DNA of 64,000 nucleotides from Candidatus Ratteibacteria bacterium (GCA_049971295.1 JBMFLH010000001.1:2245-66244); one strand, 5' to 3'; positions 16,598 to 37,501 are shown, counted from the first letter of the stretch. A program made the numbers and translations. Notes: generated by a model not told the origin, from the letters alone.

Positions 16598-17645
16598 AAA
16601 CAGAGAACATACCAAAAGAGACTGACATTGTGGTAATAGGCGCTGGCATTATGGGGTGCTCCATCGCCTATCATTTGTCAAAAGAAACCAGGGAAGTGAT
16701 TGTATTTGAAAAACGGAGTATTGCATCGGGCGCAAGCGGAAGAAATGGAGGCCAGGTAATACAACTCGAAGGTAGGGATAAAAATCCTGAAACAATAAAA
16801 GCGCGTCTTTTGGTGGCAAAAGAAAACAACAAAATGCTGAAAAATCTTGAAAAAGAATTAAATTCTACACTTGAATACCAGAAAGTGGGAAGCCTGGATA
16901 TCGCGCTGAACGAAGAAGAATGGAAAGACATAAAGAAAACAGTTAGAATTCAACAGAAAGCCGGTGATAGAGAAATAGAATTATTGGATAAACGAGAAAT
17001 TCTCAAAAAGTGCCCTTATTAACAGAAAAAGTTTATGGGGCAAGATATAGGGCATCAGATGGAACAATCAATCCATTTTTTCTGACTCATGAGTTTGCTT
17101 TTAAAGCGATGAAAAATGGCGCAAGATTTTTTACAAACATCAGAGTCAAAAAAATCATCACAGACAACAAAAAAGTCAAAGAAATTGAACTTAAAAATAA
17201 TCAGAAAGTAAAATGTGGAGCCGTCATCAACGCCACAAATGCTTGGTCAATCCTCTTGTGTTATGAAAAATTATTCAAGCATATACATCAGGAAAACATG
17301 TACACAGGTCTTCTATTGGACGGCGATATCAGTAGCATCCTTGACGACTTATTAAAAATGGAAATTGATGTTATTCAATTTGTGCAACCAAATGTAAGCG
17401 GCATAAAAACACTCAAAGAAAAAGTCAAGGGTAAAAAATGCTTAAAATGCAGCGTGGATATGATGAGTACACTTGCATACGGAACACCAGAAGATGTGAA
17501 AAAAGAAGCAGAAGCGCTGGTAGAAAACCTAAATGCAAAAGAAGGTGGTTTTATATGTAATGTCATGCGCTGGTACAGACCCAGTTATCCAGAAAGAAAT
17601 GTTCTTGCATCAGTTGAAACTTTTAACAAATATAGAAAAAAATGA
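16594..17645 (+). pseudogene. Disrupted and chimeric FAD-dependent oxidoreductase (DAO family, HcnC/SoxB/OoxB-like). There is a -1 frameshift near 17005-17010 (A5 run, CTC AAA AAG). The 3' third is replaced by the C-terminal roughly 130 aa of a URO-D/MtaA-like methyltransferase.
   Basis: Frame A (16594-17022) holds the DAO N-terminus (IVVIGAGIMGCSIAYHL...GRNGGQV). Frame B (17010-17645) continues the DAO (VPLLTEKVYGARYRASDGTINPF...GAVINATNAWS), then switches to URO-D-like sequence (GTPEDVKKEAEALVENLNAKEGGFICNV...PERNVLASVETFNKY). Confidence 0.5.
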
Positions 17646-17959: not shown

Positions 17960-19038
17960 AAAAAAAAGAACTGGTAATTATTGGTGGAGGGCCTGCAGGA
18001 CTCTGCGCAGCAATAGAAGCCAGAAAAAAAGGCATTGATGTTCTATTGATTGATGAAAACCTCAGACCTGGGGGTCAACTCTTCAAACAGATTCATAGAT
18101 TTTTTGGTTCCAGACAACATATGGCTGGCATCAGGGGTATTTCAATAGGAGAAACACTGCTGAGAGAGGTTGAAAAACTTGGAGCGGATGTCTGGTTAAA
18201 TAGTGTTGTTTACGGAATTTTTGGAAACAGAATAATAGGAGTGGTAAAAAACATTCTGGTCAAAGCAGAAACAATTCTTGTAGCAGCAGGAGCACTTGAA
18301 AACTCATTGGCTTTCCCTGGTTGGACACTTCCGGGTGTAATGGGAGCCGGCGCCTGTCAAACAATGATAAATATACACAGGGTTTTGCCCGGGAAAAAAG
18401 TACTGATGATAGGGGCAGGAAATGTGGGTTTAATCGTTGCGTATCAATTACTTCAGGCAGGCGCTGAGGTCAAAGCAATCATTGATATCATGCCTGAAAT
18501 TAGCGGCTATATGGTTCATGCGGCTAAAATCAAAAGATGTGGAGTGCCAATTTTTCTTTCCACAACAGTAATTGAAGCCACTGGAAAAAATGAAGTGAAA
18601 GCAGTAATAATATGCCCTGTTGATAACAACTTTGAGCCCATTTATAAAAAAAGAAAACTTCTGGATGTGGACCTGATTTGCATAGGCACCGGACTTTCGC
18701 CACTCAACGAACTATTATATCAGGTGGGTTGTGAATTTACATATAAACCATATCTTGGTGGACGTGTAGCACTGCACAATGAAAATATGGCAACAACTGT
18801 TGACGGAATTTTTGTTGCAGGAGATTGTTCAGGCATAGAAGAAGCATCAACAGCCATGGAGGAAGGTAAACTTGCAGGAATATCCGCAGCCGAGAAAGTT
18901 AGAAAAAAAAGATGGGATGATGAAAAATTGGACATAAGAAACCGGCTTAATGATTTCAGGATTGGTACCTTCGGAGAAAAAAGAAAAATTTCAAAAAAAG
19001 TGATAATAAACGAATACCATGAAAAAATTAAAAATTGA
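17956..19038 (+). CDS. FAD/NAD(P)-binding pyridine nucleotide-disulfide oxidoreductase (HcnB/OoxA-like subunit)
   Basis: N-terminal LVIIGGGPAGLCAAIEARKKGIDVLLIDEN, second Rossmann motif MIGAGNVGLIVA. Confidence 0.75.
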   Translation: MKKKELVIIGGGPAGLCAAIEARKKGIDVLLIDENLRPGGQLFKQIHRFFGSRQHMAGIRGISIGETLLREVEKLGADVWLNSVVYGIFGNRIIGVVKNILVKAETILVAAGALENSLAFPGWTLPGVMGAGACQTMINIHRVLPGKKVLMIGAGNVGLIVAYQLLQAGAEVKAIIDIMPEISGYMVHAAKIKRCGVPIFLSTTVIEATGKNEVKAVIICPVDNNFEPIYKKRKLLDVDLICIGTGLSPLNELLYQVGCEFTYKPYLGGRVALHNENMATTVDGIFVAGDCSGIEEASTAMEEGKLAGISAAEKVRKKRWDDEKLDIRNRLNDFRIGTFGEKRKISKKVIINEYHEKIKN

Positions 19039-19501
19039 CGAGACTATGTATATAAAAATCCCCGGATTCCCTTCCGAACAAAGAATAAAAAAAGGACCGG
19101 TTGCAGTTATTGAATGTGCACAGGATATCCCCTGCAATCCCTGTGAAACTATATGCCCGAAAAAAGCAATAAAAGTTGGGATTCCTATCACAAACTTACC
19201 TGAACTTGACCAGGATAAGTGCAGTGGCTGTGGATTATGTATTCCTGTGTGTCCTGGACTCGCTATATTTGTTCTCAACTATAATTTTGACAAAAAAAAT
19301 GCAAGTTTGACAATTCCTTACGAGTTTCTGCCAATTCCAGATAAAAGCGAAAAAATAAAGTGCATTGATAGAAATGGGAAACGTGTATGCAATGGCAGGA
19401 TTGTCAGGGTTATACCTCCAGAAAAAAATAGCGGAACATCCATCATAACCTTTTCGTTTCCGAAAAAATATTTCAACGTAGTCAGAAACTTTAAAAAATG
19501 A
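19019..19501 (+). CDS. 4Fe-4S ferredoxin-domain protein
   Basis: Cys clusters CNPCETICP and CSGCGLCIPVCP. Confidence 0.6.
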   Translation: MKKLKIDETMYIKIPGFPSEQRIKKGPVAVIECAQDIPCNPCETICPKKAIKVGIPITNLPELDQDKCSGCGLCIPVCPGLAIFVLNYNFDKKNASLTIPYEFLPIPDKSEKIKCIDRNGKRVCNGRIVRVIPPEKNSGTSIITFSFPKKYFNVVRNFKK

Positions 19502-19773
19502 AAAAAGACAAAATCATATGTAGATGTAAAGAAATCACCGAAGGACAAATTCTTGAAGTTATTGGAAAGGGTATTATTGACGTAGACAGTGTGAAAAGAG
19601 CACTGGGAGCAGGCATGGGGTTGTGTCAGGGCAAAACATGCACAAACCTTATTATTAAAATTATCAGCCAGAATAAGGACATCCCTGTAAAAGATGTAAA
19701 AACACAAACAAGCAGGGCACCAGTACGACCGATTCCAATCAAAACAATTTCTAAACAACCAACCGAAGACTGA
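19498..19773 (+). CDS. BFD-like (2Fe-2S)-binding domain protein
   Basis: CRCKEITEGQI...GLCQGKTC pattern of BFD-like [2Fe-2S] domains. Confidence 0.7.
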   Translation: MKKDKIICRCKEITEGQILEVIGKGIIDVDSVKRALGAGMGLCQGKTCTNLIIKIISQNKDIPVKDVKTQTSRAPVRPIPIKTISKQPTED

Positions 19774-19805
19774 GGTAGAATATATTCATAACAACGAAAT
19801 GGGAA

Positions 19806-20073
19806 AGGAAATGAAAATAAATAATGCAGCCATCACGACCATAGAACTTCTCACTCTTATTGCACTTGCCTCGCTTGGAAGCAGTATCTTTTTCCCTGAA
19901 ATTGTCCGGATAAAAGAAAAAACAAATCAGGCGTTATGCGTAACCAACCTCAAACAGTGCTATATGGCACATATGATGTATGCCGCTGATTTCAATGATT
20001 ACCTGGTTCCAAATGAAAATCCAAAACAACCTGACTACCCGAGGGTGTGGACAACAGTGCTGATGGGATATTA
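19806..20073. repeat. Perfect 268-bp direct repeat, copy 1 (RBS plus 5' end of a DUF1559 gene)
   Basis: Base-by-base comparison with 30751-31018 shows identity. Identity ends at 20074 (t) versus 31019 (c) and at 19805 (a) versus 30750 (g). Confidence 0.9.
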
Positions 20074-20095
20074 TAGTACTTGTGGACCAGCATAA
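19811..20095 (+). pseudogene. Truncated DUF1559 prepilin-like gene fragment (94 aa). The first 87 codons are identical to the gene at 30756. It lacks the H-X9-DG C-terminal domain and ends in a divergent tail (STCGPA*).
   Basis: Nucleotides 19806-20073 are 100% identical to 30751-31018. The prepilin-like N-terminal hydrophobic helix is present, but the ORF stops after 94 aa. Confidence 0.6.
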
Positions 20096-20159
20096 TTAAA
20101 AACAATTTCCCTTACCAAACAATTTTTGAGATTCACACGCATTGCTTTTAGAAGACTGG

Positions 20160-20188
20160 TTGATATTTCAGAGTTTTAACGGTATAAT
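20160..20188 (+). promoter_or_regulatory. Sigma70-type promoter for tRNA-Ser (TTGATA-N17-TATAAT)
   Basis: TTGATA at 20160-20165, 17-bp spacer, TATAAT at 20183-20188, about 10 bp upstream of the tRNA 5' end. Confidence 0.5.
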
Positions 20189-20198
20189 GAATAGCACA

Positions 20199-20289
20199 GG
20201 AGGGGTCGCATAGAGGTCTAGTGCGGCGGATTGCTAATCCGTTGTATCGTCGAAAGGCGGTACCGTGGGTTCAAATCCCACCCCCTCCG
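20199..20289 (+). tRNA. tRNA-Ser (anticodon GCU), class II with long variable arm
   Basis: Perfect 7-bp acceptor stem (GGAGGGG/CCCCTCC), discriminator G, anticodon loop TTGCTAA, hairpin variable arm, T-arm GTGGG-TTCAAAT-CCCAC. CCA not encoded. Confidence 0.85.
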
Positions 20290-20407
20290 TTTTATCTCCC
20301 TCAAAGGATTTGAATGGAGCGGTGCTGGTGCGAGGAAACGAGCACCGTATGGCACAAAGGTCGAGAAAATGAGGCAGGACGGATCGACCAACAGCAGTGG
20401 ATAAAGG

Positions 20408-21454
20408 CTAATTAAAAAGGGACTCCATTTCAACCTTTTTCTTTAATTCTTCTGTCTTCTCTTTAAGTCCTCTGGTTTTTAAAAGAACCTCTGATATTTC
20501 CTTAAGATTGATCTCTGGACTTTTTTTCATCCTATCATAATAAGACATTACTAAGCTCCAAACATTTGCAAGTTGTTCTCCCTGACCCTTTAATGATGGA
20601 ATGGAATAAGCTTTTTCTATCCAGGGTTTGTAATCTGCCTCATATACCTGTGCAAGAGATGTAATTTTCCATTTCAAGATGTTGTACCTCGGTTCATTAA
20701 TTTCATGTTCAATGGCGTCAGATTCTTTTTTATTCAACATCTTTTTTTTGAAAACAATTGTCCCATAATTCTCCACTTCATGAAATGACTTTTGAATTTT
20801 CGGCCAGCATGAAACTCTTTCTTCTGCTGGTCCTGTGAGATTATTTCTTCCAACGTTTATTTTCCACTTTTCTCCATCAGATGGTATCTTCCCGAGCACC
20901 TTGAATGGTATTTTTATTTCAACTGACCAGAAATCTTTACCAACAAAACTTTTCGCCTGCCAGTTCTCGAGAGGAACCGTCTGAGCGATACCTACCGCAT
21001 TCCACTTTGAACTGATTGTGTTGACAATAAATTGCCAGCAATTCATCTCAGGAGGAATAAGAAATAATTCAACACTATCTTCCATCCATAAAAATTTGTC
21101 CCCATCTGGTCTTTTTGCTTCAATTTTCTGGACATCTGGCTCTTCAGCCTTAAAGGCAAAATAAAAATTTTCATTATCCCAGCCCGCCTTGAACCATGAT
21201 GGTTTGACCGTGGCAAATTCATTCCCGCCAAGAAGGAAAAAACACCTGGCTTCAGGAATAAACTGCCAGCAATCATCATCAACCTTGCCATCCAGAACCG
21301 GTTCCTTTTTGATTAGATAACACTGATACAATGAAATTTCTTTTGCGTTAATGAGATTGTCTTTAAGCTGTGTATTTTTGATATTGTCGGCAATAGCACA
21401 TCCAGCATAAAGCAATAAACAGATAAATAAAATTATATTCTGTAGTTTATACAT
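20408..21454 (-). CDS. Secreted protein with CBM9-like (DOMON-type) carbohydrate-binding domain
   Basis: Signal peptide (MYKLQNIILFICLLLYAGCAIA). CBM9-like block LDGKVDDDCWQFIPE...ATVKPSWFKAGWDNENFYFAFKAEEPD...SVELFLIP. Start trimmed to ATG 21454. Confidence 0.5.
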   Translation of the reverse strand: MYKLQNIILFICLLLYAGCAIADNIKNTQLKDNLINAKEISLYQCYLIKKEPVLDGKVDDDCWQFIPEARCFFLLGGNEFATVKPSWFKAGWDNENFYFAFKAEEPDVQKIEAKRPDGDKFLWMEDSVELFLIPPEMNCWQFIVNTISSKWNAVGIAQTVPLENWQAKSFVGKDFWSVEIKIPFKVLGKIPSDGEKWKINVGRNNLTGPAEERVSCWPKIQKSFHEVENYGTIVFKKKMLNKKESDAIEHEINEPRYNILKWKITSLAQVYEADYKPWIEKAYSIPSLKGQGEQLANVWSLVMSYYDRMKKSPEINLKEISEVLLKTRGLKEKTEELKKKVEMESLFN

Positions 21455-21467
21455 TTTAGCCGCCTTT

Positions 21468-24400
21468 TTATTTAACGTTGAATGTTTTTTCAACAGCAGT
21501 GCCTGTGGAAACATCTTTTACTTTTATTTTCCATAACCCTATTTGTTCATCGAGAGCAAGTGAAATCTTATCCTGAATTTTACCATTTTTTGCTGCAAGG
21601 TTTTTCGTGTAATATTTCATTTCTTTGCCAGAAGGCGATATCAAACATATATTAAAAACATGAAATCCAGGGGTTGATGTTGCCACAATTTCAGCACTGT
21701 AAGAAAATTCTGTACCTTGCTTAACAGTTCCTGGTACCGAAAGATTGATGCTGGTAACTCTGTATGGCAAAAGGCTATACACCTTTGGCTTAATAGGAAT
21801 AAAGTCTGTTGTAATTGTGTTTGTATATCCAATAAATCTTCCTTCCCTGGTATCATAAACGTAAAAGTTTTCAGGAAGCGATATCTGTCCTTTATTTTGT
21901 TTCTCAGCGATTGTATCATCAACTTCCTGAAGAATTCCCAGATACATGTTATTGCCCGCATTGTATCTGTACATTTTCAATCCAGGCACATCAGGCGATA
22001 TCATAATTTTCTTTTTGTTGCCTGCAAATGTCCAGAGTTTATCACAAAAGTCCTTCAATAAGAGAGCGTTTTCTACATTGACCTGGAGTTTCCCTTTTTC
22101 AAGTTCACCTTTTACTGAAGCATACTCCTTCATCGTAAAATTCAAAAGTATTCCCTTACCTTTACCATAGGTATTGGTAATCAGGACCGGTATACCATCA
22201 GCTGAACCAGCGGGTTGACCTGTGGTCACTTTTAAGGTAGTATCAACAATTGTTGCGGGCAGTTTTGAAGGGAAAAAAACATTACCAATTGAAATGTCTG
22301 TTTTCTTGCCACCCGAACGGTCAAAGGTATTCTGGGATATACCAAAAATTTCATCAAGAATTCCAGTTGAATATGATTTACCATGTTCATCACATACACC
22401 TGGTCGCAAATCAGCAATCACTGTGCCACCATTCCTGACGAAATTGATAATCTCTGATGCCTCTTTTTGTGAAAGTGCCTGAGTAAAGGGAAGATATAAA
22501 AATTTGAAATTGCCTGTATTGAGTATTCCATCCTCAATCTGCTTGGAAGAAATAATTTTGAATTGTCGTTGCGTATCTTCCATCACTGTTACAATGCTAT
22601 CCAGAACTTCTGCCATCGTTGGAAATTTGGGAGATAATGTCGCCATATGTACACTTGATGCCGAATATAAAATTGCTGTCTGATCGTAGTCTTTTTTTGA
22701 CGCCATAAACAGTTTACCGATACCAGATTTGATTTCATTGACCTGCGCAAGTGTAATCTTGAAAAAATCATAAAAAGAAAAATCAGAGGCAGTTGTACTA
22801 AGATTTTGCCCCGGAAAACCTGTCCACATAAAAACACCTGTCGCACCTTTAAAAAGATTTCTCCATGGGAAATAGTAATTAAATAATTTACCTTCCCTGC
22901 AGAAGGAATAACCACCTGTCCATCCAAAAGAAAGAAGGCTATTGGGCTGAGCAAAATCTTTAATAGCACAATCTATAAAAGGTCTTGTATAGTCACCGTT
23001 GAGATTGATAGCATTCATCAACTTGTAAAAGTCAGCAGCTTTAAAGGTGTTTACTTCAGCATCTGTTCCTTCGTAGCCAACCCTTGCATATGGAATTTTT
23101 TTCCGTATCACATCAGCAGCGTACTGATACGAACCCGCCCAGACACTTTCCATGCATCGTCTGTAATCAACCCAAAGAGGGATTAAATCAGGATTTTTTA
23201 TTGCAACCTGATAGGTTACAGGTTGCACTTCTAAAAATGAATTATAGTGTGAGTTATACTCCTTATTCAGGTTCTGAATGGTTTTGTATTCCTGTTGAAT
23301 AAATTCCTGGAATTTCTTTACGCAATATGGACAGAAACACAACTCATAGCCAGCGGGTGAAAAATGCAATTCATCGCCCATTGTGAACTCACACACCGAA
23401 AAATCTTTTACCTTATCAATGTCCTTATTCAAACCATCCGCAATCTTTTGCAAAACCTCAGGGTCATTGAGACATGGAACCCTCACATGATCTGAAGGGT
23501 CTCTTGGAGATTTTCTGTCAGCAAAAAACCATGTCACAGACTCGCATATACCAATGAAATTAAGATTTGCAAAGGGTATCATATCAGAAAACTGTGGATA
23601 GATTGTATCAATGCCAGCATTGTAATATAATTTATACAAATAAAAAGACAAATATGCTGTGTCAACAGGTCCACACCACATGATTGACCTGAAGTCATCA
23701 AGTGGTTCAATATCTGAAATAGAAAATTTTTGATTTTTTTCTGCAAGAATTTTTCCATCCTTTATCAATTGAACATTAATGTTATTCACAACTGTAAGAT
23801 AACTGGCTGGCAAAAGAGTGAAGTTTATTTCTCTGGAATCCACAGTTAGTGTTTTCTGCTGCAGAAGTCTGCCGAAATTATCTCTGTGCTGAATCCTTAA
23901 AATTAATCCGTTTTCAGGTTGCTGTTTCAAAACGATTTTTCCACCTATGGTATCGCTTGTCCTGAAACTCTTGTTCATTTCAATTTTTTCAATATCCTGT
24001 TGAGAGGATACCTCTAAAAAACAGCTCCCAAAATCAATCACCTTTCCACCATTTTTTATCCACACATCAACGTAGTATGAACCCGCCGCGAGATTGTCAA
24101 AATTTCCAGCAAGATTATTTTTGCCGGGATTCAGTTTAAGATTTTTCTCATCATTAAGAACTTCCTCCCCTGATTTTTTTCTGATAATAAAATTACAACT
24201 AATAGATTTTTCTTTTTGGCTTTCCACATTGAAATTGATGTTAATCTGCCTGCCATAGTCAACCATTACATAATCAGGGCCTGTAAGAATGCATTCAGGT
24301 TGTCTGTCAGCAGCCCATAAAATGGCTCGTATGATAAAGGCAAGATAGTAATCATAATCGCTATAATCGGTCTCAAGTGCACTTTTCTTTGGCTTTACGG

Positions 24401-25082
24401 GACACAAAAAATGCATCGCAGAATCAGCCACATAGTTTTTTATAATAAAAATTTTCCCCTTACCAAACGAATAGCAGAAGAAAGTTGATTTCACAAATTC
24501 GTCAAAACTGCGATATTTTTCAAATGCAGGCAATGCCCTGTATGGAAAAACAAACTGAAGATTCAGTGGCACCTTGTTTGTTGTTGCCCGTGTTAGATAC
24601 TCATCTGTATCCTGACCTGTCCTTTGATAGAACAAGAAATTCGTACCCTCTTTGATTTTTTTCAGTAACTCATATCTTGCCCACAATGGTAAAACATTCC
24701 AGCTAATACCTGAAACAATGACATCATAACTACCAGAAAGTTTCTCCTTTAAAATTTTGTCGTAGAATTCTGTCGTAATATTCGGTGGCAGAGCATAGTG
24801 TGGCTGAAGGTAATTGTATGGAGTGTCTGACGCAAATACATCATATTTTATATCCATTCGCTGAGATATTTCGACAATTTCCCTGAAACCTCCATTTAAT
24901 CTATAACCCAGAAATAACACTCTCAATGGCGGCTGAGCAGAAGGTTTCAACCATTTAATATGAGGAGTAACAACCTCTTCGTCTGGCATAAAATACTTGC
25001 TTCCATATCCTGGTAATTCATAGCCAAATATGATACTACAAAACAAAAAAGACACTCCTGCGAGCCACAATGCTTTGCTCAT
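21468..25082 (-). CDS. Giant secreted multidomain protein (1204 aa) with a GH42-like (beta-galactosidase family) glycoside hydrolase core
   Basis: N-terminal signal peptide. Cys cluster CFCPYCVKKFQEFIQQEYKTIQNLNKEYNSHY resembles the GH42 Zn site and the F..WL..Y....LN..W region. C-terminal GGTVIADLRPG-containing domain resembles the GH42 trimerisation domain. Confidence 0.45.
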   Translation of the reverse strand: MSKALWLAGVSFLFCSIIFGYELPGYGSKYFMPDEEVVTPHIKWLKPSAQPPLRVLFLGYRLNGGFREIVEISQRMDIKYDVFASDTPYNYLQPHYALPPNITTEFYDKILKEKLSGSYDVIVSGISWNVLPLWARYELLKKIKEGTNFLFYQRTGQDTDEYLTRATTNKVPLNLQFVFPYRALPAFEKYRSFDEFVKSTFFCYSFGKGKIFIIKNYVADSAMHFLCPVKPKKSALETDYSDYDYYLAFIIRAILWAADRQPECILTGPDYVMVDYGRQININFNVESQKEKSISCNFIIRKKSGEEVLNDEKNLKLNPGKNNLAGNFDNLAAGSYYVDVWIKNGGKVIDFGSCFLEVSSQQDIEKIEMNKSFRTSDTIGGKIVLKQQPENGLILRIQHRDNFGRLLQQKTLTVDSREINFTLLPASYLTVVNNINVQLIKDGKILAEKNQKFSISDIEPLDDFRSIMWCGPVDTAYLSFYLYKLYYNAGIDTIYPQFSDMIPFANLNFIGICESVTWFFADRKSPRDPSDHVRVPCLNDPEVLQKIADGLNKDIDKVKDFSVCEFTMGDELHFSPAGYELCFCPYCVKKFQEFIQQEYKTIQNLNKEYNSHYNSFLEVQPVTYQVAIKNPDLIPLWVDYRRCMESVWAGSYQYAADVIRKKIPYARVGYEGTDAEVNTFKAADFYKLMNAINLNGDYTRPFIDCAIKDFAQPNSLLSFGWTGGYSFCREGKLFNYYFPWRNLFKGATGVFMWTGFPGQNLSTTASDFSFYDFFKITLAQVNEIKSGIGKLFMASKKDYDQTAILYSASSVHMATLSPKFPTMAEVLDSIVTVMEDTQRQFKIISSKQIEDGILNTGNFKFLYLPFTQALSQKEASEIINFVRNGGTVIADLRPGVCDEHGKSYSTGILDEIFGISQNTFDRSGGKKTDISIGNVFFPSKLPATIVDTTLKVTTGQPAGSADGIPVLITNTYGKGKGILLNFTMKEYASVKGELEKGKLQVNVENALLLKDFCDKLWTFAGNKKKIMISPDVPGLKMYRYNAGNNMYLGILQEVDDTIAEKQNKGQISLPENFYVYDTREGRFIGYTNTITTDFIPIKPKVYSLLPYRVTSINLSVPGTVKQGTEFSYSAEIVATSTPGFHVFNICLISPSGKEMKYYTKNLAAKNGKIQDKISLALDEQIGLWKIKVKDVSTGTAVEKTFNVK

Positions 25083-25094
25083 TGATTGCCTCCT

Positions 25095-25805
25095 CTAATT
25101 TGAAAACAGTTTTTCAAACAAATATTGCGAGAAATCTTGCTTCAGCTCATAAATCAGAAAATAACCATCCCTTTCAATCTTATCAAGATATTTCTGCTCA
25201 AGTTTTTTTCTCAAAGATTCAGCTTCTGCACCCTGAAGGTTATTTTCTCTAATCAGGTCATCAAGAGATGCCTTCAAAATCGGTCTATATTTTTGAGCAC
25301 ACATCTCAATGCTCTTTTTATAATTTTCTCTACTTTCTATCAAAAGATTAATCCGTTCTGCTATCTGCCTTGCATCTGCGTTAAATTCAGGCGTTTGCAT
25401 GAGGACTGAAATATCTTTAATCGTACCTTTTTCTATAACAGATTTCACTCTTGTAAAAATAGCAGGATCCTGACCCTGTGGAACCGCTTTTTCCATTGAA
25501 GGAACCACTTTTAATATCACACTACAGGCAGAGGCAAGATTATTTTGAAAAATGTAAGATAAACAGAGCATCAATCCTGCTTTTACCTTTATCTCAAAAG
25601 GGGTGTCGTCATTATTAATGAGCTTTATCAATTCATCAGTTAGTTGTCCATACTGATTTGCTGTATCAGTTATAAAGGATGACATAAATTTCTCGTAAAT
25701 AGTCTGATAAATTATAGTTTTTGAATCAGTGGTTCCCTTTTGAGCAAAGGAAGAAATAGAAAAAAATAACAGACATACTACAGTACGCATACAAATTTTG
25801 CCCAA
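25095..25805 (-). CDS. Secreted hypothetical protein (all-alpha, 236 aa)
   Basis: Signal peptide MRTVVCLLFFSISSFAQ. No recognisable motifs. Confidence 0.5.
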   Translation of the reverse strand: MGKICMRTVVCLLFFSISSFAQKGTTDSKTIIYQTIYEKFMSSFITDTANQYGQLTDELIKLINNDDTPFEIKVKAGLMLCLSYIFQNNLASACSVILKVVPSMEKAVPQGQDPAIFTRVKSVIEKGTIKDISVLMQTPEFNADARQIAERINLLIESRENYKKSIEMCAQKYRPILKASLDDLIRENNLQGAEAESLRKKLEQKYLDKIERDGYFLIYELKQDFSQYLFEKLFSN

Positions 25806-25831
25806 CGTGTCCTCCCTGTTGTTTCCTCACA

Positions 25832-26530
25832 TCAATAATTCGCTATGGTCAGGTCTGCCCTCAATATGTCATAGACTGGAAGTAAATAATGTATCCTATC
25901 TTCATTGCATGCTTCAACATGTCCATCAGCAAACCATGCATTAGCAAAACCTGTATGTTTTAGATGTATGCATGCGCCCTGGGTATATGAGTAGTAGTAA
26001 ACTGCGTAAGGTTTTCCGACATTCCCGGCAGCAACAAGAGACGAATCCAGTAACCATGGGAACTCTGCTGGTTTTGGTAAATTGGTTATCCTGAGATACC
26101 AGGGTCCTGAAGGACTGTCCCGCCTTACATTTTTATTTCTTGATGTTGGACAAGGAAATTGCCAGCCAAAAATGGTTGGGTCTCTATAGTATGCAGCATT
26201 GACATCTATTGCAATACCGTTATATGCCCAGTTAAAAGGCTTCTGCCTGTTCGTGGGGCAAACAACAAGTTCCTGATTTTTTAGATATCCCTTAACAAAA
26301 TAAGGCTGAAGTCCAGTATAACCGGGCTGACCCACTGCCAACCAACCATCCCAATCCTCTGCATATAGCACCATTCCCAATCCTACTTGCTTCATATTGT
26401 TCATACATACTGCCTGGCGGGCCTTTTCTCTTGCCCGTGTCAGTACAGGAAGCAACATCGCAGCCAGAATCGCTATGATCGCAATGACAACAAGCAATTC
26501 AATAAGAGTGAAGCCCTTTTTCATTTTCAT
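25832..26530 (-). CDS. DUF1559 prepilin-like protein (N-terminal prepilin-type cleavage/methylation helix plus H-X9-DG domain)
   Basis: [25 protein letters not shown]-terminus; C-terminal [15 protein letters not shown] (H-X9-DG). Confidence 0.8.
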
Positions 26531-27587
26531 TCACCTCCTTTGTGTTTTTCAAATTCAATTGACATGGCAAAACAATTTCAATTTTTCGCTTTTCTCCAGT
26601 TATCAATTTCTTTAGAGATTCTCCCGCACATTTGCCAATCTCAGAAAGTGGCTGAATGACTTCATGAATATATCTTTTTTCCTCATATTCCACAGGAACC
26701 TCATCAAATGTAGCAATTTCAAGTTCATCAGGAATCCTTATCTTTTTGTTTCTCACCACATGTAGAACAATATCAAGCAGGCCTCCTCTCAACACAATCA
26801 CAGCTGTTGGTTTATATTCATCAAGCATTTTCTCAAAACATTCCTTCAATCCTGAAAATTCAAGAGGATCATGTTGTTTGATTTTAATGGTTACTATTGC
26901 TTTTTCGTTCTGTTCAATTCCTGCTTTCCTGCAGGCATTGATGAATCCCTGATATCGTTGCATTGCATATGAAATTTCCGTTATCTTGCCGACAAAGCCG
27001 ATTTTCCTGTGTCCCTTTTTTATCAAAAATTCTGTAATTTCCTCTCCTGCCTTTTCATGCCAGGCACTCACATAATTAATTCCTTTTTCAACTCTGTTAA
27101 CAGTAACAACAGGCATCATAAAATGGGTTTGTAATTTCTTTATCACAGAAATGTGATTGGAAAATGGTGCAATCCAGATCATCCCGTCAATATCCAGATT
27201 CTTCATCTTCACACAAAGTTCAGAATAACTACAATGATAAGGAAGAATGTGCATGCTAACATTATCAAACGACTCACTGTTTAACATCCCGGAAACAACC
27301 GATGCAATAAAAGAATCTTTCATATCCCGTTTTGGAGGAAGGATTACCATATAATGGAGCAATGATTCAGGTCGCAACTTCTTTTGAATAAAAGTACCTC
27401 TTCCTGGAATTCTTACCACAAGAGATTCTTGTTCAAGTTCATCAAGCGCACGGCGAACAGTAATGTGGCTAACACCAAACTGGCGTGTCAGTTGATTTTC
27501 TGTGGGCAACCGATCTCTTTCTTTCCCCTGTTCAATAATTTTCAACAAATAGTCTCTTATCCCTTCATAAAGGAATCGCTTCGTCAT
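26499..27587 (-). CDS. AraR-like transcriptional regulator (GntR-family HTH fused to a LacI/PBP-type sugar-binding domain)
   Basis: Gnt[45 protein letters not shown], followed by a periplasmic-binding-protein-like effector domain. Confidence 0.7.
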
Positions 27588-27676
27588 TTCGCTTTTTTTA
27601 ACATTTCTGTTTTCATGATATTATAATATAAATTATAAATTTGTTTGTCAAGTCAGCACAATATGAAAGGAGAGAA

Positions 27677-28747
27677 ATGGAGAAGAACAAAAGGTGGGTT
27701 CACCCCCTGTGCAAGCCGCTTGAGACAAGTTCAAATGGTCCATTTATTATGCTGTCTGAAAAGCAAATTTTTACGATTGATAATGAAGGCGCAAAGATAA
27801 GCGAAGATGAAGGAAAAAATTGGAAACATCTCTCGTTCGTTAGTGAGGGTATTAATCAATCCTGTCCAAGTACCCTTGGACTTTTGAAAACAAAAAATAA
27901 TACAATTGTTCTTCTATATCTTGACTTCAAAACATACAGGTTTTCCTGGAATAATGAAATCAATGAACCTCAACAGGATTGTAAACTGGAATTATGGGCC
28001 ATACGCAGCACTAATGGTGGGAAAACATGGAAGGACAAACAAAAAATCCTTGATGGCTATAATGCAGACTTTTTTGGATTTATCCAGACAAGAACCGGAA
28101 GAATTCTGGCAAGCGTTGAACACCTTGTTAGTAACCCTGCAAGGTGGGTAAGTTTTTCAATATACTCTGACGATGAAGGAAAAACGTGGGGAAAAAGCAA
28201 TATCATAGACATCGGAGGACATGGACATCATTCAGGAGCAATGGAACCAACTGTGGCTGAATTAAATGATGGGAGACTTCTGATGCTGATCAGAACAAAT
28301 CTTGACTGGTTCTGGCAGGCAATTTCTGACACAGATGGAAAATACTGGCGCACAATAATGCGAAGCAACATAGACGCCAGCAGCGCCCCGGGTTATTTAA
28401 CAAAATTGCAGAGTGGAAGATTGATACTTGTATGGAACAGAGTGGACCCAGAAAACCAGCAATTTCCCAGAGGACTTCCGAATCCTCAATGCGGTGAAGA
28501 GATAAATTCCAGCTGGCACAGAGAAGAATTATCAATAAGTTTTTCTGAAGATGATGGAAAAACATGGTTAAAACCGATTGTGATTGCAAAGCAAAAAGGG
28601 CAGATCAGTTATCCATATATCTTCGAAAGAAAACTCGGTGAGGTATGGATTACAGCCACCTGGCTGCGAGAACCCGATGGCAGTATTTCAAAAACACCAT
28701 TCAGAGTAAAGATAAAAGAAGAAGAATTTCTGAAAAACAACCGGTGA
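27677..28747 (+). CDS. BNR/Asp-box repeat glycoside hydrolase (sialidase/GH33-like beta-propeller)
   Basis: Four Asp-box repeats (STNGGKTW, SDDEGKTW, SDTDGKYW, SEDDGKTW). Start set at ATG 27677 behind an AAAGGAGAG RBS. Confidence 0.65.
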   Translation: MEKNKRWVHPLCKPLETSSNGPFIMLSEKQIFTIDNEGAKISEDEGKNWKHLSFVSEGINQSCPSTLGLLKTKNNTIVLLYLDFKTYRFSWNNEINEPQQDCKLELWAIRSTNGGKTWKDKQKILDGYNADFFGFIQTRTGRILASVEHLVSNPARWVSFSIYSDDEGKTWGKSNIIDIGGHGHHSGAMEPTVAELNDGRLLMLIRTNLDWFWQAISDTDGKYWRTIMRSNIDASSAPGYLTKLQSGRLILVWNRVDPENQQFPRGLPNPQCGEEINSSWHREELSISFSEDDGKTWLKPIVIAKQKGQISYPYIFERKLGEVWITATWLREPDGSISKTPFRVKIKEEEFLKNNR

Positions 28748-28752
28748 AAAAA

Positions 28753-30759
28753 ATGAAAACAAAATATCAACTGAACGTGTTTGAAAATGAAAAGGAAATT
28801 GGCATTGCCTGTCCTTACTGGATAGTCAAACATTCAAAGGAAAAAGGCGGCACGATTTCAGAAATTATCTTCAAGCAGGGCACTCAAAAAAATATTCTGG
28901 TTGAACCGTTAAGTTCCATGATTTTATTAAAGGAAGGGAATAATTATAATCGTTACTACGAATCTGAATGCAAAAATCCTGAAATAATGGTAGAGGAAAA
29001 AGAAAACATTGTGGTGACCTCACGCGGTACATACACCTGTGAAAATGGACAATGTGCTGATATTAAATACATAACTACATACCATTATAATGATTACGGG
29101 CTTGTAAGTATCACGCTTGAATTGAATTTCTCAAACACAGTAAAAAATATCATATCACTTAGTATCCTGAAGTTCTCTGTCTGTGGTTCATTAAATACTG
29201 CTGGTTATATACCATATGCGCAAAATGGGTTTTACCCATCGAGTTTTGAAAAGGTTATATGGAAGGAATTTGTTCAAAGACACTATTACAACAACGCTCT
29301 GTTAATGGGAAAATTCAGACCCGCGTATTTCTGCATTCTTCAAAGAAGGGTAGAGGGCATTGAAATTTTTAGCCCTGATATCATTGAAGATAACAGGTTT
29401 TTCAATAACAAAGAAAACACTGGATTCTATCAGGCGCGTTACCATGATGTTAAAAACATTGTTGAGATAGAGTTTTCGCCCTATGGAGAATGGCAACTCC
29501 CTATCTCGATGAAAAAAGGAAAATATTTATTTTCATATTTTCTTGGACTTCCTTCTAGCAAAGGGAAAAACGTGGTTCACCAACCATATTTTCATGCAAG
29601 GATTGACAGCAGATGGCCGGATGAAAAACAACTGGATATTCTTGCGAAATCAGGGGTGAAATTGATTCGACTACACAATGATTATAGAGAAGACGGTCCT
29701 TTCTGGCACGATGGGTGTTATCCACCATATGACAGAAAAAACATGGAAAAAATGGACTGGGTGATTGAACAAGTTCACAAACGAAAGATGAAAATCGTTC
29801 CGTATTTTTCTTTGAAGGAACTTCATCCAGATGCTCCTGAGTATAAAAAATTCAGAAAACTCTGGAAAAGAACGATTGATAAAAAATACTCTGTAATTCA
29901 CAATTATGCAGGTACCGGTGAATATGGCGCCCAGATGTGCCTGTGCTCAGGATGGAAAGAATTTAGAAAAAAATCTATAGACATCGTATTGAAAAAACAT
30001 TCTTTTGACGGAGTTTATTATGATTGGGTGGCATCTCTGCATTGCAACAATCCTGCTCATTTTGACGGAAAACAGCATACCGATATTGAACAGCTTATTG
30101 ACCTGATATTCTGGACAAGGAAAAGAGTTGGACCAGATGGAATAGTTTTCCTTCATCTTTCAGGGGTACCTATGATGGTTATTGAGAATACAGCAGATAT
30201 CATCTACACCCATGAAGACCTTCCATGGCTGGCTCCATACCCCGGGGACTTTTCACCTGAAACTGATTTTGCTGGAATCACCGTACATCAAATTACGACT
30301 TGCAATCTCTGCAATGATTCAGAAAAAGAAAAATTCTTTACACTCAGCTGTTTTCTCGAAGGGCTGTGGGTTTGTCCGAGAAATATTTCTGATAATGACC
30401 CTGTTGTAAAAGAAATGAAAAAATTTAGTCAATATGACCTCACATCCTATCAGTTTCAACCAGCCAGCGAAAAACCAGTTCATATCACCAGTACAAATAT
30501 TTACGCGTCTTTGTACTGGAAAACAGATTCAGTTCTGATTTATGTTGCAAACCTCAGCAACCAAAAAACATCAGGAAATATTCATGTCAATCTCACACCG
30601 AAAAACTGGAGTTGTACAACACAGGTAAGAATTAAATCACCTTATCTGATGAAAAAAACTAATATTGAGAAACTTTTTCGATATGGAGAAAAGCTGATAC
30701 TTTCACCATGGGAAAGTTATTTAATAGAAATTGAAAAACCTAAAAGGGGGAGGAAATGA
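28753..30759 (+). CDS. Hypothetical 668-aa protein, possibly a TIM-barrel glycoside-hydrolase-like enzyme
   Basis: Start trimmed to ATG 28753, overlapping the upstream stop. No signal peptide. No family assigned from sequence alone. Confidence 0.5.
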   Translation: MKTKYQLNVFENEKEIGIACPYWIVKHSKEKGGTISEIIFKQGTQKNILVEPLSSMILLKEGNNYNRYYESECKNPEIMVEEKENIVVTSRGTYTCENGQCADIKYITTYHYNDYGLVSITLELNFSNTVKNIISLSILKFSVCGSLNTAGYIPYAQNGFYPSSFEKVIWKEFVQRHYYNNALLMGKFRPAYFCILQRRVEGIEIFSPDIIEDNRFFNNKENTGFYQARYHDVKNIVEIEFSPYGEWQLPISMKKGKYLFSYFLGLPSSKGKNVVHQPYFHARIDSRWPDEKQLDILAKSGVKLIRLHNDYREDGPFWHDGCYPPYDRKNMEKMDWVIEQVHKRKMKIVPYFSLKELHPDAPEYKKFRKLWKRTIDKKYSVIHNYAGTGEYGAQMCLCSGWKEFRKKSIDIVLKKHSFDGVYYDWVASLHCNNPAHFDGKQHTDIEQLIDLIFWTRKRVGPDGIVFLHLSGVPMMVIENTADIIYTHEDLPWLAPYPGDFSPETDFAGITVHQITTCNLCNDSEKEKFFTLSCFLEGLWVCPRNISDNDPVVKEMKKFSQYDLTSYQFQPASEKPVHITSTNIYASLYWKTDSVLIYVANLSNQKTSGNIHVNLTPKNWSCTTQVRIKSPYLMKKTNIEKLFRYGEKLILSPWESYLIEIEKPKRGRK

Positions 30760-31018
30760 AAATAAATAATGCAGCCATCACGACCATAGAACTTCTCACT
30801 CTTATTGCACTTGCCTCGCTTGGAAGCAGTATCTTTTTCCCTGAAATTGTCCGGATAAAAGAAAAAACAAATCAGGCGTTATGCGTAACCAACCTCAAAC
30901 AGTGCTATATGGCACATATGATGTATGCCGCTGATTTCAATGATTACCTGGTTCCAAATGAAAATCCAAAACAACCTGACTACCCGAGGGTGTGGACAAC
31001 AGTGCTGATGGGATATTA
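30751..31018. repeat. Perfect 268-bp direct repeat, copy 2 (native 5' end of the full-length DUF1559 gene)
   Basis: Identical to 19806-20073. This copy is translationally coupled (ATGA) to the upstream 704-aa ORF. Confidence 0.9.
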
Positions 31019-31376
31019 CAAATACATTACTGATAAAAAAATCATCCATTGTCCTTCTGTTGAACCTCAGGCAGCTTCCATCAGTTTCTGTTATGGAAGC
31101 TGGACAAGAAACTTTGAAAAGATTAATCAGTTACCCGAAAAGTACAAAAAATCATCAAAAGAAATTATTCTTCTCGCTGATAGCTGGGCAACAAATATCA
31201 GCAAAGAAATGTGGCTTATTGCGCCACCTCCCACGCAGTATTATGTTGTATCACTTCGCCATGATAAAAAGGCAAATATTCTGTTTCTCGATGGCCATGT
31301 AGAAGCAGTCAGCCCTGATACAGTGCCTAAGGAAGGGTATGCTCCTTTTACACCTACTTTTTTTGCAATTCAGTAA
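30756..31376 (+). CDS. DUF1559 prepilin-like protein, full length (206 aa, H-X9-DG)
   Basis: N-terminal ITTIELLTLIALASLG helix; C-terminal HDKKANILFLDGHVEAVS. ATGA overlap with the upstream ORF. Confidence 0.8.
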   Translation: MKINNAAITTIELLTLIALASLGSSIFFPEIVRIKEKTNQALCVTNLKQCYMAHMMYAADFNDYLVPNENPKQPDYPRVWTTVLMGYYKYITDKKIIHCPSVEPQAASISFCYGSWTRNFEKINQLPEKYKKSSKEIILLADSWATNISKEMWLIAPPPTQYYVVSLRHDKKANILFLDGHVEAVSPDTVPKEGYAPFTPTFFAIQ

Positions 31377-32625
31377 ACTGGCTTGAAGAAATTTTCTTTA
31401 AGTCGCTGAACATAAAAGCATGAGTTTTTTTGACAGGTGGATACGCAATCTGTTCATAAAGCATCATACATGGAAAAATAGTATCAGTTCCGTACTTTTC
31501 GTTGATTGCATCCATTGCCTTCAACATTTTTTCCCTTTTTTCATTTCCAAAGAAAGACATCTGATATCTTTTATGAATCCCGGAAACACTTACGCCAAGG
31601 AGCCGTAATTTTTTTATAACAGGTTCTGCAAATATAAGAAAACTGGCATACCTGAATATTGTCTGATCATCATTAAACCAGAAAGGATAAGTTTTTCTTT
31701 TTGAAAATGATGTAAAATCACTGTATCTTACAACCACAGTAACAACATTACCATAATAATTTTCCTGTCTCATCCTCATACCAACCTGATGAGAAAGTCT
31801 ACACAGTACACTTAAAATAATATTAATATCATCTGTATCGTCTCTGAGAGTATAGGAGTGCCCAAAAGATTTTGGTTCTGGAGATTGAATATTCACCTTT
31901 GTTTCACCCATGCCATGGCACAGATACCACACCTGTTCACCTCTCACACCGAATTTCTTTTTCAGTAAATTTAATGGAATTTTTTCAATCTGTCCACAAA
32001 ATTCAATCCCCATTAAACTCAATTGTTCTGCCATTTTAGGCCCAATACCAGGCACCTTCTCCACAGGTAATTTTTCCATAAAACGCGGTATCTCATCCTC
32101 CATCACAATCATCAATCCATCAGGTTTACATAAATCAGAAGCAATTTTTGCAACAGTTTTATTGCGGGAAATTCCAACAGAACAGGTAAGTGCTGTCTCT
32201 TTTTTAATTGCATTTTTAATAGAAATCCCAAGTTCTATTAAATGTTCATTGGAAATATTCTCTGAAGATATCTCAAGAAATCCTTCATCTATTGAATAGA
32301 GTTCAACCTTTTCTGTAAAAGTTTTCAAAACATTAAAAATTCTTTGTGATGTATCAATATATTTTTCAGAATTACCCCTCACAATAATTGCCCCCGGGCA
32401 CAGATTTAATCCTTCAATAATACTCATTCCTGATTTCACACCATATTTTTTTGCCTCATAGGAACATGCCGCAATCACAGAATCCCTTGCAGTATTGCCT
32501 GAAACAAACACAGGTTTCCCTCTAAGAAAAGGATTAAATGTCTGTTCCACTGATGCGAAAAATGCATCCATATCAACATGAATAATTATGTTATTCATGT
32601 TATCCATCCATATGAATTCTATCAA
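31354..32625 (-). CDS. dinB: Y-family DNA polymerase (DinB/Pol IV-like), translesion synthesis
   Basis: IIHVDMDAFFASVEQ catalytic N-terminus, SIDEGFLEI motif, little-finger domain. The alternative start at 32607 is equally possible. Confidence 0.85.
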   Translation of the reverse strand: MIEFIWMDNMNNIIIHVDMDAFFASVEQTFNPFLRGKPVFVSGNTARDSVIAACSYEAKKYGVKSGMSIIEGLNLCPGAIIVRGNSEKYIDTSQRIFNVLKTFTEKVELYSIDEGFLEISSENISNEHLIELGISIKNAIKKETALTCSVGISRNKTVAKIASDLCKPDGLMIVMEDEIPRFMEKLPVEKVPGIGPKMAEQLSLMGIEFCGQIEKIPLNLLKKKFGVRGEQVWYLCHGMGETKVNIQSPEPKSFGHSYTLRDDTDDINIILSVLCRLSHQVGMRMRQENYYGNVVTVVVRYSDFTSFSKRKTYPFWFNDDQTIFRYASFLIFAEPVIKKLRLLGVSVSGIHKRYQMSFFGNEKREKMLKAMDAINEKYGTDTIFPCMMLYEQIAYPPVKKTHAFMFSDLKKISSSQFTELQKK

Positions 32626-32848
32626 GTTTCCATTGAAGTTTCACAGGGTCAAAATGAATTTCCCAGATCGCATTATCAGAAGAAACCGCAAAATGAAATA
32701 CTGGATATATCCCACTTTTTGTCATCCATCGATAGGTAATGTTTTCTACTGGAATAATTCTACTATTCCAGAACAGTGAAATAATCTTTATTGTACCTTT
32801 GCCAACAATCCACTTAACCTTTATTGGTTCGTTGACATCTGTAATCAT
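32600..32848 (-). CDS. 82-aa protein of unknown function encoded between lexA and the Y-family polymerase
   Basis: ORF abuts the lexA stop and overlaps the polymerase start. No motif recognised. Confidence 0.4.
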   Translation of the reverse strand: MITDVNEPIKVKWIVGKGTIKIISLFWNSRIIPVENITYRWMTKSGIYPVFHFAVSSDNAIWEIHFDPVKLQWKLDRIHMDG

Positions 32849-33430
32849 TTATACCCTCCGGAACACTCCTATTACTTTTCCAACAATCATATTTTCTTTT
32901 ACTTCCATGGGTTGATAAGAAGGATTCGCCGGTATCAGATAAATTTTATTTTTTATTTTTTTGAAATATTTAACAGTGGCTTCCTCACCTACAACAGCAG
33001 CAACGATATCTCCATTATGAATGTCAACATCTTTTTTTATAATCACATAATCACCATTATAAATATGCGCCTGTTCCATACTATCTCCAGAAACCTTTAG
33101 AGCAAAAACATTTTCAGTATCACTAAAAGAAAATAGAGTTTCTTCAAAAAAATCTTCAATCACAAGAGGTTTACCTGCCGCAATTTTTCCAATCACAGGA
33201 ATTCCGGAAAACTGTGGTAAAAATTTTATTCTCAATGCCCTGGCTCTGCTGGAATCTTTAACCAGATAACCCTTGTTTATTAAACTGCGAAGATGGCATG
33301 TTACCGCATTTGGGCTCTTAAATCCAAAAAATAAACGAATATCCTGAACCGAAGGTGCGTAACCATATTGTTTCATAAATAGAGTAATAAATTTCAAAAT
33401 TTCAGACTGACGCCCTGTTAATTTTTTCAT
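32849..33430 (-). CDS. lexA: LexA repressor (S24 peptidase)
   Basis: N-terminal winged-helix LexA DNA-binding domain. S24 catalytic Ser (GDSM) and Lys (VIIKK). Operator in its own promoter. Confidence 0.85.
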   Translation of the reverse strand: MKKLTGRQSEILKFITLFMKQYGYAPSVQDIRLFFGFKSPNAVTCHLRSLINKGYLVKDSSRARALRIKFLPQFSGIPVIGKIAAGKPLVIEDFFEETLFSFSDTENVFALKVSGDSMEQAHIYNGDYVIIKKDVDIHNGDIVAAVVGEEATVKYFKKIKNKIYLIPANPSYQPMEVKENMIVGKVIGVFRRV

Positions 33431-33447
33431 TTTTAATCCCCGAAAAT

Positions 33448-33476
33448 ATTATACTGTATATTTGTACAGTAGTCAA
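33448..33476 (-). promoter_or_regulatory. lexA promoter with embedded LexA operator. On the minus strand it reads TTGACT-N17-TATAAT, and the CTGT-N8-ACAG box (33454-33469) fills the spacer.
   Basis: Plus-strand TACTGTATATTTGTACAGTA (33452-33471) matches the E. coli SOS-box consensus TACTGTATATATATACAGTA at 18 of 20 positions. The -35 element is at 33471-33476 and the -10 element at 33448-33453. A GGGGA RBS precedes the lexA ATG. Confidence 0.7.
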
Positions 33477-33513
33477 GATGTTATAATTTCCACCCAAAAT
33501 CTTCTGGCAGGTA

Positions 33514-34833: not shown

Positions 34834-34855
34834 AAATACCCCTATAAAAATAAAA

Positions 34856-34930
34856 TGGTGGAGGTAATCGGATTCGAACCGACAACCTTCCGCGTGCAAG
34901 GCGGACGCTCTCCCATTGAGCTATACCCCC
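34856..34930 (-). tRNA. tRNA-Ala (anticodon UGC), CCA encoded
   Basis: Reverse complement gives GGGGGTATAGCTCAATGGGAGAGCGTCCGCCTTGCACGCGGAAGGTTGTCGGTTCGAATCCGATTACCTCCACCA. It has the G3:U70 alanine identity pair, anticodon loop CTTGCAC, and a GTTCGAATC T-loop. Confidence 0.85.
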
Positions 34931-34986
34931 TATGTAATATTATAACTCATTATTGCCTTTCAGTAAACAGAAAAAAAGAATTAAGA

Positions 34987-35016
34987 TTTACAAATTTTAT
35001 TGAAATTGATTATAAT
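34987..35016 (+). promoter_or_regulatory. Candidate sigma70 promoter (TTTACA-N18-TATAAT) for the glycosyltransferase operon
   Basis: TTTACA 34987-34992, TATAAT 35011-35016, about 40 bp upstream of the GT start at 35058. Confidence 0.3.
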
Positions 35017-35057
35017 AACAGAAATTGAAAAAAATCAGGATACCGTAACCGTATCGT

Positions 35058-37494: not shown

Positions 37495-37501
37495 TTAAAA
37501 A

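Follow-up and report, generated by a model that had tools for sequence, protein, structure and literature searches.

Organisation of the locus and extent of the repeat

The DNA analysed is a stretch of 64,000 nucleotides (nt) from Candidatus Ratteibacteria bacterium (GCA_049971295.1 JBMFLH010000001.1:2245-66244), hereafter called the window, and the subject of this work is a pair of long direct repeats within it. Each repeat consists of the 5' end of a pilin-like gene, and together they bracket a tRNA-Ser gene and a set of genes with predicted roles in glycan utilisation (Table 1). Copy 1 lies behind a gene for a BFD-like [2Fe-2S] protein, while copy 2 forms the start of a full-length gene upstream of dinB and lexA.

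Comparison of the window with itself showed that positions 19806-20073 and 30751-31018 are the same base for base over 268 bp and in direct orientation, as was reported in a preliminary description of this DNA. A weak extension of the repeat gives 284 nt at 98% identity (19790-20073 and 30735-31018). The sequences flanking the two copies are not alignable with each other, and the tract of identity is thus bounded by unrelated flanks. No second repeat of at least 35 nt was identified anywhere in the 64-kb window, and a 41-nt piece of the repeat had two matches in the window compared to 0.00 expected in shuffled sequences.

Table 1. Features of the repeat-bracketed region and its borders (window positions; L numbers denote loci from other assemblies)
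Feature	Position	Strand	Basis or remarks
BFD-like [2Fe-2S] gene, last of GFO/DAO/URO-D/Fer2_4/Pyr_redox_2/Fer4/BFD operon	19498..19773	+	PF04324, 1.4e-11
Linker, BFD stop to repeat	19774..19805	+	Homologous to linker before full-length BFD-linked paralog in relatives
Repeat copy 1	19806..20073	+	Ribosome-binding site and first 263 nt of coding sequence; exact copy also in independent contig L002
94-aa open reading frame, truncated remnant (pseudogene reading) of gene A	19811..20095	+	88 pilin-like N-terminal residues and 6 unique
Truncation junction (tail) and tRNA-Ser upstream region	20074..20198	+	Promoter-like site 20160-20188
tRNA-Ser(GCU)	20199..20289	+	ARAGORN; Rfam RF00005, 57.5 bits
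CBM9-domain protein (368 aa), GH42-like 1204-aa protein and 236-aa protein	20408..25805	-	Pfam; same order by 206-aa gene in L004/L023, L017
DUF1559/N_methyl pseudopilin (232 aa, bona fide) and GntR-HTH/LacI-type periplasmic-binding-fold regulator (362 aa)	25832..27587	-	Pfam; syntenic in L008, L017
BNR/sialidase-like protein (368 aa) and 704-aa DUF6259 protein	27641..30759	+	Pfam
Repeat copy 2	30751..31018	+	Exact copy also in independent contigs L001, L007
Gene B, full-length 206-aa pilin-like H-X9-DG protein	30756..31376	+	TIGR04294; PDB profile match to PilA helix
dinB (IMS family), 82-aa gene and lexA; conserved right flank of variable region	31354..33430	-	Pfam; synteny

Copy 2 is the start of a pilin-like gene

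The onset of copy 2 is located 5 nt upstream of the ATG (30756) of an open reading frame (ORF) of 206 amino acids (aa), here called gene B. This start codon overlaps the TGA of the 704-aa ORF (ATGA), in line with the coupling of the two genes put forward in the preliminary description. The 206-aa protein passes the NCBIfam model TIGR04294 for the H-X9-DG motif (22.2 bits, cut-off 19; residues 166-186) and is annotated by NCBI as an H-X9-DG-CTERM domain-containing protein. No match to Pfam DUF1559 (PF07596) or to N_methyl (PF07963/TIGR02532) was obtained for it at E<=0.01. The earlier designation of copy 2 as the native start of a full-length DUF1559/H-X9-DG gene is therefore retained for the ORF start and the H-X9-DG motif but not for Pfam DUF1559. 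A profile of the 206-aa family showed weak similarity to the N-terminal helix of PilA structures in the PDB (residues 9-65, E=6e-4). An AlphaFold2 model of the protein was poor (pLDDT 40.6, from a nine-sequence alignment), its credible part being the N-terminal helix at residues 10-62.

Orthologs of the 206-aa gene are found upstream of dinB in all relatives, and its adjacency to the 704-aa gene is kept in L008, L015, L017 and L097. The block of dinB, the 82-aa gene, lexA, a 461-aa gene and tRNA-Ala is kept in all relatives examined. In the window, the 3' end of the 206-aa gene and that of the convergent dinB overlap by 23 nt (31354-31376). Furthermore, the prepilin cleavage motif (window 30756-30800, residues 5-12) has Ala at position -1 (NAA/ITTIELL, cleavage site at the slash), where all relatives possess Gly, and the window protein may no longer be processed by prepilin peptidase.

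Copy 1 occupies the locus of a probable second, BFD-linked paralog

Copy 1 begins 32 nt past the stop codon of the BFD-like gene, and its ATG (19811) is 37 nt past that stop. The 94-aa ORF that starts here, annotated by NCBI as hypothetical protein ACP5JO_00100, has 88 residues in common with the 206-aa protein, followed by STCGPA and a stop codon; it had been described beforehand as a prepilin helix with a short divergent tail near a BFD-like gene, and this was found to be so.

At the position homologous to copy 1, five assemblies with approximately 85% nucleotide identity to the window (L014 from Logan; L016, L020 and L021 from ENA, assembled with SPAdes; L019 from JGI) encode a full-length gene of 208 or 222 aa. 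The order in each is Fer4, BFD, a linker homologous to that of the window, and the full-length gene. Using blastn, L014 11-1078 aligned contiguously to window 19003-20073 (84.9%) and L016 2-1183 to window 18889-20073 (85.1%). The alignments of all five are unbroken through window position 20073 and then jump to 30744. What follows the BFD-linked gene in L016 and L021 is a YgjP-like gene and a type I restriction-modification (R-M) system, not dinB, and its last 100 nt or so are 58-65% identical to the copy of L017 that is linked to the 704-aa gene and dinB. On account of these two differences, the BFD-linked gene looks like a separate paralog, here called gene A, rather than a deletion product. 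Since related populations hold this full-length paralog at the same locus after BFD, copy 1 of the window is most likely a truncated gene A, cut after codon 88 and fused to the promoter region of tRNA-Ser.

The main alternative places the truncation at the origin. The 5' 268-285 bp of gene B would have been copied behind BFD in a common ancestor, and recombination between the repeats would then have looped out the interval in relatives. Under it, the window represents the undeleted state, its copies still homogenised by conversion, and both the relatives with a full-length gene after BFD and L018, in which the gene follows GFO, are products of such deletions. The join between the exact left junction of copy 1 and a continuation of copy-2 type in L014, L016 and L019-21 is what this history predicts. 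We consider it unlikely, even as the foremost competitor of a truncated gene A: the continuation leads to YgjP and R-M genes and not to dinB, and the 3' divergence described above separates it from the dinB-linked copy. A clean deletion would also cost the cell tRNA-Ser(GCU), the only one seen in the 64-kb window, where AGY makes up 32% of the Ser codons. In addition, one NCBI accession series (HOL) holds proteins of both gene-A type (HOL34947.1) and gene-B type (HOL35403.1), and the accession numbers suggest that these come from one metagenome-assembled genome (MAG). Both histories need conversion to account for the identity of the copies.

The order of the oxidoreductase operon from GFO to BFD is also found in L011-13 and L019-21. 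In the window, the DAO gene (16540-17645) is frameshifted near 17010-17022, and a deletion of approximately 1.2 kb (junction 17262-17268) joins it to the final third of the URO-D-like gene; both genes are intact in L011-13 and L019-21 (402 and 347 aa). Owing to these lesions, the operon upstream of copy 1 is decaying in the window lineage, and it is wholly lost in L018. Exact-protein look-ups of the BFD and 704-aa proteins of the window gave no match. A defence island lies immediately 3' of the full-length BFD-linked paralog in L021 (6905-15951), comprising genes for a YgjP-like metallopeptidase, HsdR, HsdS, a Schlafen/AlbA_2 protein and HsdM, and is absent from the window.

The repeat is recovered in independent assemblies

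The window is part of a MAG contig of 80,992 bp, and a repeat of 268 bp is longer than typical k-mer sizes, conditions that would favour a mis-join at a repeat shared between strains. A metagenome-assembly junction was among the options of the preliminary description. As an independent set, contigs of two other Candidatus Ratteibacteria MAGs were used, GCA_049699515.1 (L001 and L002) and GCA_049968895.1 (L007). The 10.6-kb contig L001 is 99.915% identical to window 30007-40594, the 3.4-kb contig L002 is 99.67% identical to window 17995-21368 and L007 is 99.94% identical to window 29714-31289. Each contains one copy with both of its flanks, exact over the 268 bp, and all four junctions of the two repeats are thereby recovered. 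The three contigs carry single-nucleotide polymorphisms relative to the window outside the repeat, on which basis they appear to stem from distinct samples or populations. In addition, the order in the assembly fits the synteny of relatives (tRNA-Ser and CBM9 on one side; 704-aa gene, 206-aa gene and dinB on the other). An assembly artefact is thus very unlikely.

The interval is ancestral chromosome

The scan of the ORFs between the copies (20074-30750) against Pfam revealed no PF00589 integrase and no transposase domain, confirming the earlier remark that this is not a classical integrase-mediated island. The GC content of the interval (37.6%) is like that of its flanks (37.9% and 37.3%). 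A composite transposon was rejected, as there is no insertion sequence.

Genes of the interval were found in the same order beside the block of the 206-aa gene, dinB and lexA in L004, L008, L009, L011 and L017, relatives with approximately 70-90% protein identity. L004 and L023 (72% aa identity) hold the CBM9, GH42-like and a 233-aa gene followed by the 206-aa gene and dinB, while L008 (69%) holds the genes for DUF1559, the GntR/LacI regulator, BNR and the 704-aa protein before the 206-aa gene and dinB. L017 (85%) possesses tRNA-Ser and then the entire cluster except BNR, its genes being 76-92% identical at the amino acid level. The entire oxidoreductase operon is present in L011 and L012, where BFD is followed by 214 bp that do not contain the repeat, tRNA-Ser, CBM9, a remnant of the 704-aa gene, dinB and lexA; L009 retains tRNA-Ser, a 669-aa gene, a CBM9 remnant, a 5'-truncated 206-aa gene and dinB. 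As read from these comparisons, the order of BFD, tRNA-Ser, cluster, pilin-like gene and dinB is old, and relatives differ from it mainly through deletions. With its native GC content, its lack of integrase and transposase domains and its conserved synteny, the interval is read as ancestral, vertically inherited chromosome and not as a gained cassette. The preliminary description had entertained a segment gained by recombination between paralogs, or a flexible cassette, and had proposed to compare related genomes for its presence. This comparison argues against gain, given synteny reaching down to about 70% aa identity and GC equal to the flanks, although the segment is absent from L018.

The tRNA-Ser region

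The promoter and tRNA-Ser that the preliminary description placed directly after copy 1 were both identified, the former as a putative site with an 11/12 match (TTGATA-17-TATAAT). An Rfam scan of 19500-20600 returned nothing besides the tRNA. In relatives, the 3' end of tRNA-Ser and the sequence downstream of it are directly duplicated over 53-112 nt, leaving scars that resemble attachment (att) sites (L017 392-503 and 583-694; L011 8171-8223 and 8297-8349). In window 20290-20400 a GC-rich remnant is kept and no second copy of the tRNA-Ser 3' end was found. In L017, the reading frame of a tyrosine-integrase C-terminus (positions 1-321; PF00589, 69.6 bits) extends 15 nt into tRNA-Ser; copy 1 and the tail take up the corresponding place in the window. 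A search with this fragment found only other integrases, at most 79% identical.

Gene conversion as the probable cause of the identity of the copies

While copies 1 and 2 are 100% identical, they share 90.9% identity with the corresponding region of L015, L017 and L018 and 85.6-86.3% with that of L021 and L016; the adjoining BFD operon is approximately 85-87% identical to relatives. For copies evolving independently, the probability of no difference in 268 nt is about 1e-18 if divergence is 14.4% and about 8e-12 if it is 9.1%. The junction of BFD, linker and pilin-like gene is common to populations that are approximately 13-15% diverged in the BFD operon and the repeat region, and by this measure the BFD-linked and 704-linked loci both appear to be old, with the reservation that recombination between the populations is rampant.

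Identity across the two contexts recurs in a second sequence type. Between the 704-linked L097 and the BFD-linked L016, mismatches are absent from -6 to +275 and number three as far as +348, whereas past +348 a total of 85 of 273 positions differ (approximately 69% identity). This pattern, together with complete identity inside the window compared to 86-91% between lineages, points to gene conversion limited to the conserved 5' part of the gene, in which the encoded protein is nearly invariant across the family. Conversion had been listed as one option for the perfect identity, and the contrast of within-window and between-lineage values lends it support. It is not universal, as the gene-A-type and gene-B-type sequences of the HOL series are 87.5% identical in the repeat region. 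Two partial proteins, P0260 (HXK44421.1) and P0261 (HXK45727.1), are interrupted at residues 89 and 106, where the shared tract has its edge. They probably belong to one MAG, having a common accession series and locus-tag prefix, and such break points are the pattern expected if the tract were repeated in that genome too.

A very recent de novo duplication, also considered previously, would need neither an earlier copy nor conversion and would readily produce perfect identity with sharp ends. We regard it as very improbable: copy 1 sits where related populations have a full-length BFD-linked paralog, the junction with BFD already exists in populations that are some 14% diverged, and the pair L097/L016 displays the pattern in a second sequence type.

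Loss of the interval and exchange between populations

In L018, a 98-kb JGI contig, GFO, about 10 DAO codons and about 25 nt run straight into the 206-aa gene. The contig matches L017 at 100.000% identity across 10,635 bp, beginning 17 nt before the ATG, and on the left it shares 99.9% identity with L019 across 5,564 bp. Around the junction, approximately 60 nt (9923-9983) match neither L017 nor L019, so a simple chimera of these contigs does not explain L018. Its structure indicates that loss of the interval, or its replacement through recombination between populations, happens in nature. In L020, a different rSAM-GFO flank (88%) adjoins an otherwise near-identical block, and this flank and the mosaic of L018 (L019 on the left, L017 on the right) suggest that homologous exchange among these populations is frequent. 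A division of L015, L017 and L018 from L014, L016 and L019-21 as two clean species was dropped in view of the L018 left flank.

For the loop-out history introduced above, L018 is a favourable case: after GFO come about 24 nt resembling the copy-1 linker and then a gene 100% identical to the 704-linked gene of L017. The junction is, however, not a clean repeat-by-repeat product. The view of the repeats as a substrate for looping out therefore stands in so far as L018 lacks the interval and the region is prone to loss or replacement, but not as to the junction. A clean loop-out in the window would delete its sole tRNA-Ser(GCU); that tRNA gene has also been removed at the L018 junction.

L018 also resembles the empty site of a mobile element, with a flank 100% identical to L017, and a further alternative is a cassette, excisable or mobile, for which the start of the pilin-like gene is the point of entry and exit, the repeats being att-like or serving as recombination handles and the integrase having been lost in the window. 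The integrase C-terminus that ends inside tRNA-Ser of L017 and the duplicated tRNA-Ser 3' ends in L011 and L017 are features one would expect of it. Such a cassette is nevertheless improbable here: the window interval encodes no integrase or transposase, the repeats stem from a protein gene and not from the tRNA, the composition is native, the cluster is syntenic in distant relatives and a probably essential tRNA lies within. Moreover, the nucleotides at the L018 junction that occur in neither L017 nor L019 mean that it is not a simple empty site.

Proposed history of the locus

Taken together, the repeat is, in our assessment, probably the gene-converted 5' stump of a paralog, and what it brackets is ancestral chromosome. 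Gene B would be the resident pilin-like H-X9-DG gene that forms, with dinB and lexA, the conserved right border of a variable region, and gene A a second paralog immediately behind the BFD-like gene, whose full-length form is found in related populations. In the window lineage, we infer that a deletion took all of gene A past codon 88 and the DNA up to tRNA-Ser, fusing the stump to the upstream region of the tRNA gene; the corresponding space in relatives is occupied by the type I R-M island and, in L017, by the integrase fragment. Homologous gene conversion of RecA type between the direct copies would then have written one over the other, recently and as far as homology still extends. Crossing over between the copies would remove the interval including tRNA-Ser(GCU), and loss of this tRNA is probably why non-crossover conversion products, and not deletions, persist in the window lineage.

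Several points weigh against this history. The loci of relatives are on separate contigs from different samples; outside the window lineage, the coexistence of gene A and gene B in a single genome is accordingly deduced from shared accession series and from where contigs break, and no single molecule carrying both was seen. For the 125-bp tail, L002 contains the sole homolog among the loci retrieved, and no homolog pointing to the deleted DNA was found. Alignment of the intergenic region from BFD to the tRNA (window, L011, L012 and L009) gave no usable homology, the outgroup being too diverged to place the points of gene A insertion or truncation. To the left of the 268 bp, the match at 10 out of 16 nt may be due to chance. 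Lastly, the heavy recombination makes lineage labels, the age of the junction and any strict phylogenetic reading less clean.

Comparison with known systems and significance

Concerted evolution of dispersed paralogs by RecA-dependent gene conversion is known for tufA/tufB in Salmonella and for rRNA operons. The repeats of the window are alike in that the copies are identical mutually and diverged from their counterparts in relatives, with identity ending abruptly where homology ends, and in that, with the copies in direct orientation, crossing over removes the interval and non-crossover events keep the copies alike. They differ in that one partner is a truncated, probably dead 5' fragment, in the shortness of the shared tract (approximately 270 bp) and in that recombination is read here from sequence comparison.

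Integrase islands linked to tRNA genes share with this locus a tRNA at one end, accessory-looking glycan cargo and direct repeats at both ends, and in relatives an integrase fragment and duplicated tRNA 3' ends are found at this tRNA. The window departs from such islands in that its interval is without an integrase and its repeats, which enclose the tRNA, stem from the start of a protein-coding gene; its composition is native and the order of its cargo genes is conserved across relatives. A classical tRNA island was rejected on the absence of an integrase and of tRNA-derived att repeats, the native GC content and the imprecise L018 junction.

In the pilE/pilS system of Neisseria, the pilS copies are devoid of the conserved 5' end and serve as donors of variant 3' sequence. 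A truncated pilin-type copy near an expressed gene, with conversion between them, is common to both; the fragment of the window, unlike pilS, is the conserved 5' end with its ribosome-binding site, is identical to the expressed gene and offers no variation. Antigenic variation of this kind was rejected for that reason. The H-X9-DG/DUF1559 prepilin-like expansions of PVC-group bacteria resemble the family in the N-terminal pilin-type helix, the C-terminal H-X9-DG motif, multiple paralogs per genome and neighbours for glycan utilisation. The 206-aa subfamily differs from them in failing Pfam DUF1559 and N_methyl, and the window member in having Ala for Gly at -1. Literature searches on DUF1559 and Ratteibacteria yielded nothing relevant to this locus. 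The mechanism is of a known kind and this instance of it is new; no new kind of system is revealed.

It is also conceivable, if unlikely, that the conserved 5' ends of the paralogs act as homologous-recombination handles around a modular flexible region made up of the oxidoreductase operon, the defence island, tRNA-Ser and the glycan-utilisation genes. If so, whole modules would be lost, swapped or regained time and again in related Ratteibacteria/Omnitrophota-like populations, with L018 as a natural example of loss and tRNA-Ser(GCU) as a brake on deletion.

The locus illustrates that perfect repeats in MAG contigs can be authentic and explicable without a mobile element, and it offers a probable instance of paralog gene conversion combined with gene decay in a candidate phylum without cultivated members. 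Between GFO and the pilin-like gene, it also defines a stretch prone to recombination that varies in content among closely related populations, which is useful for binning and comparing such genomes.

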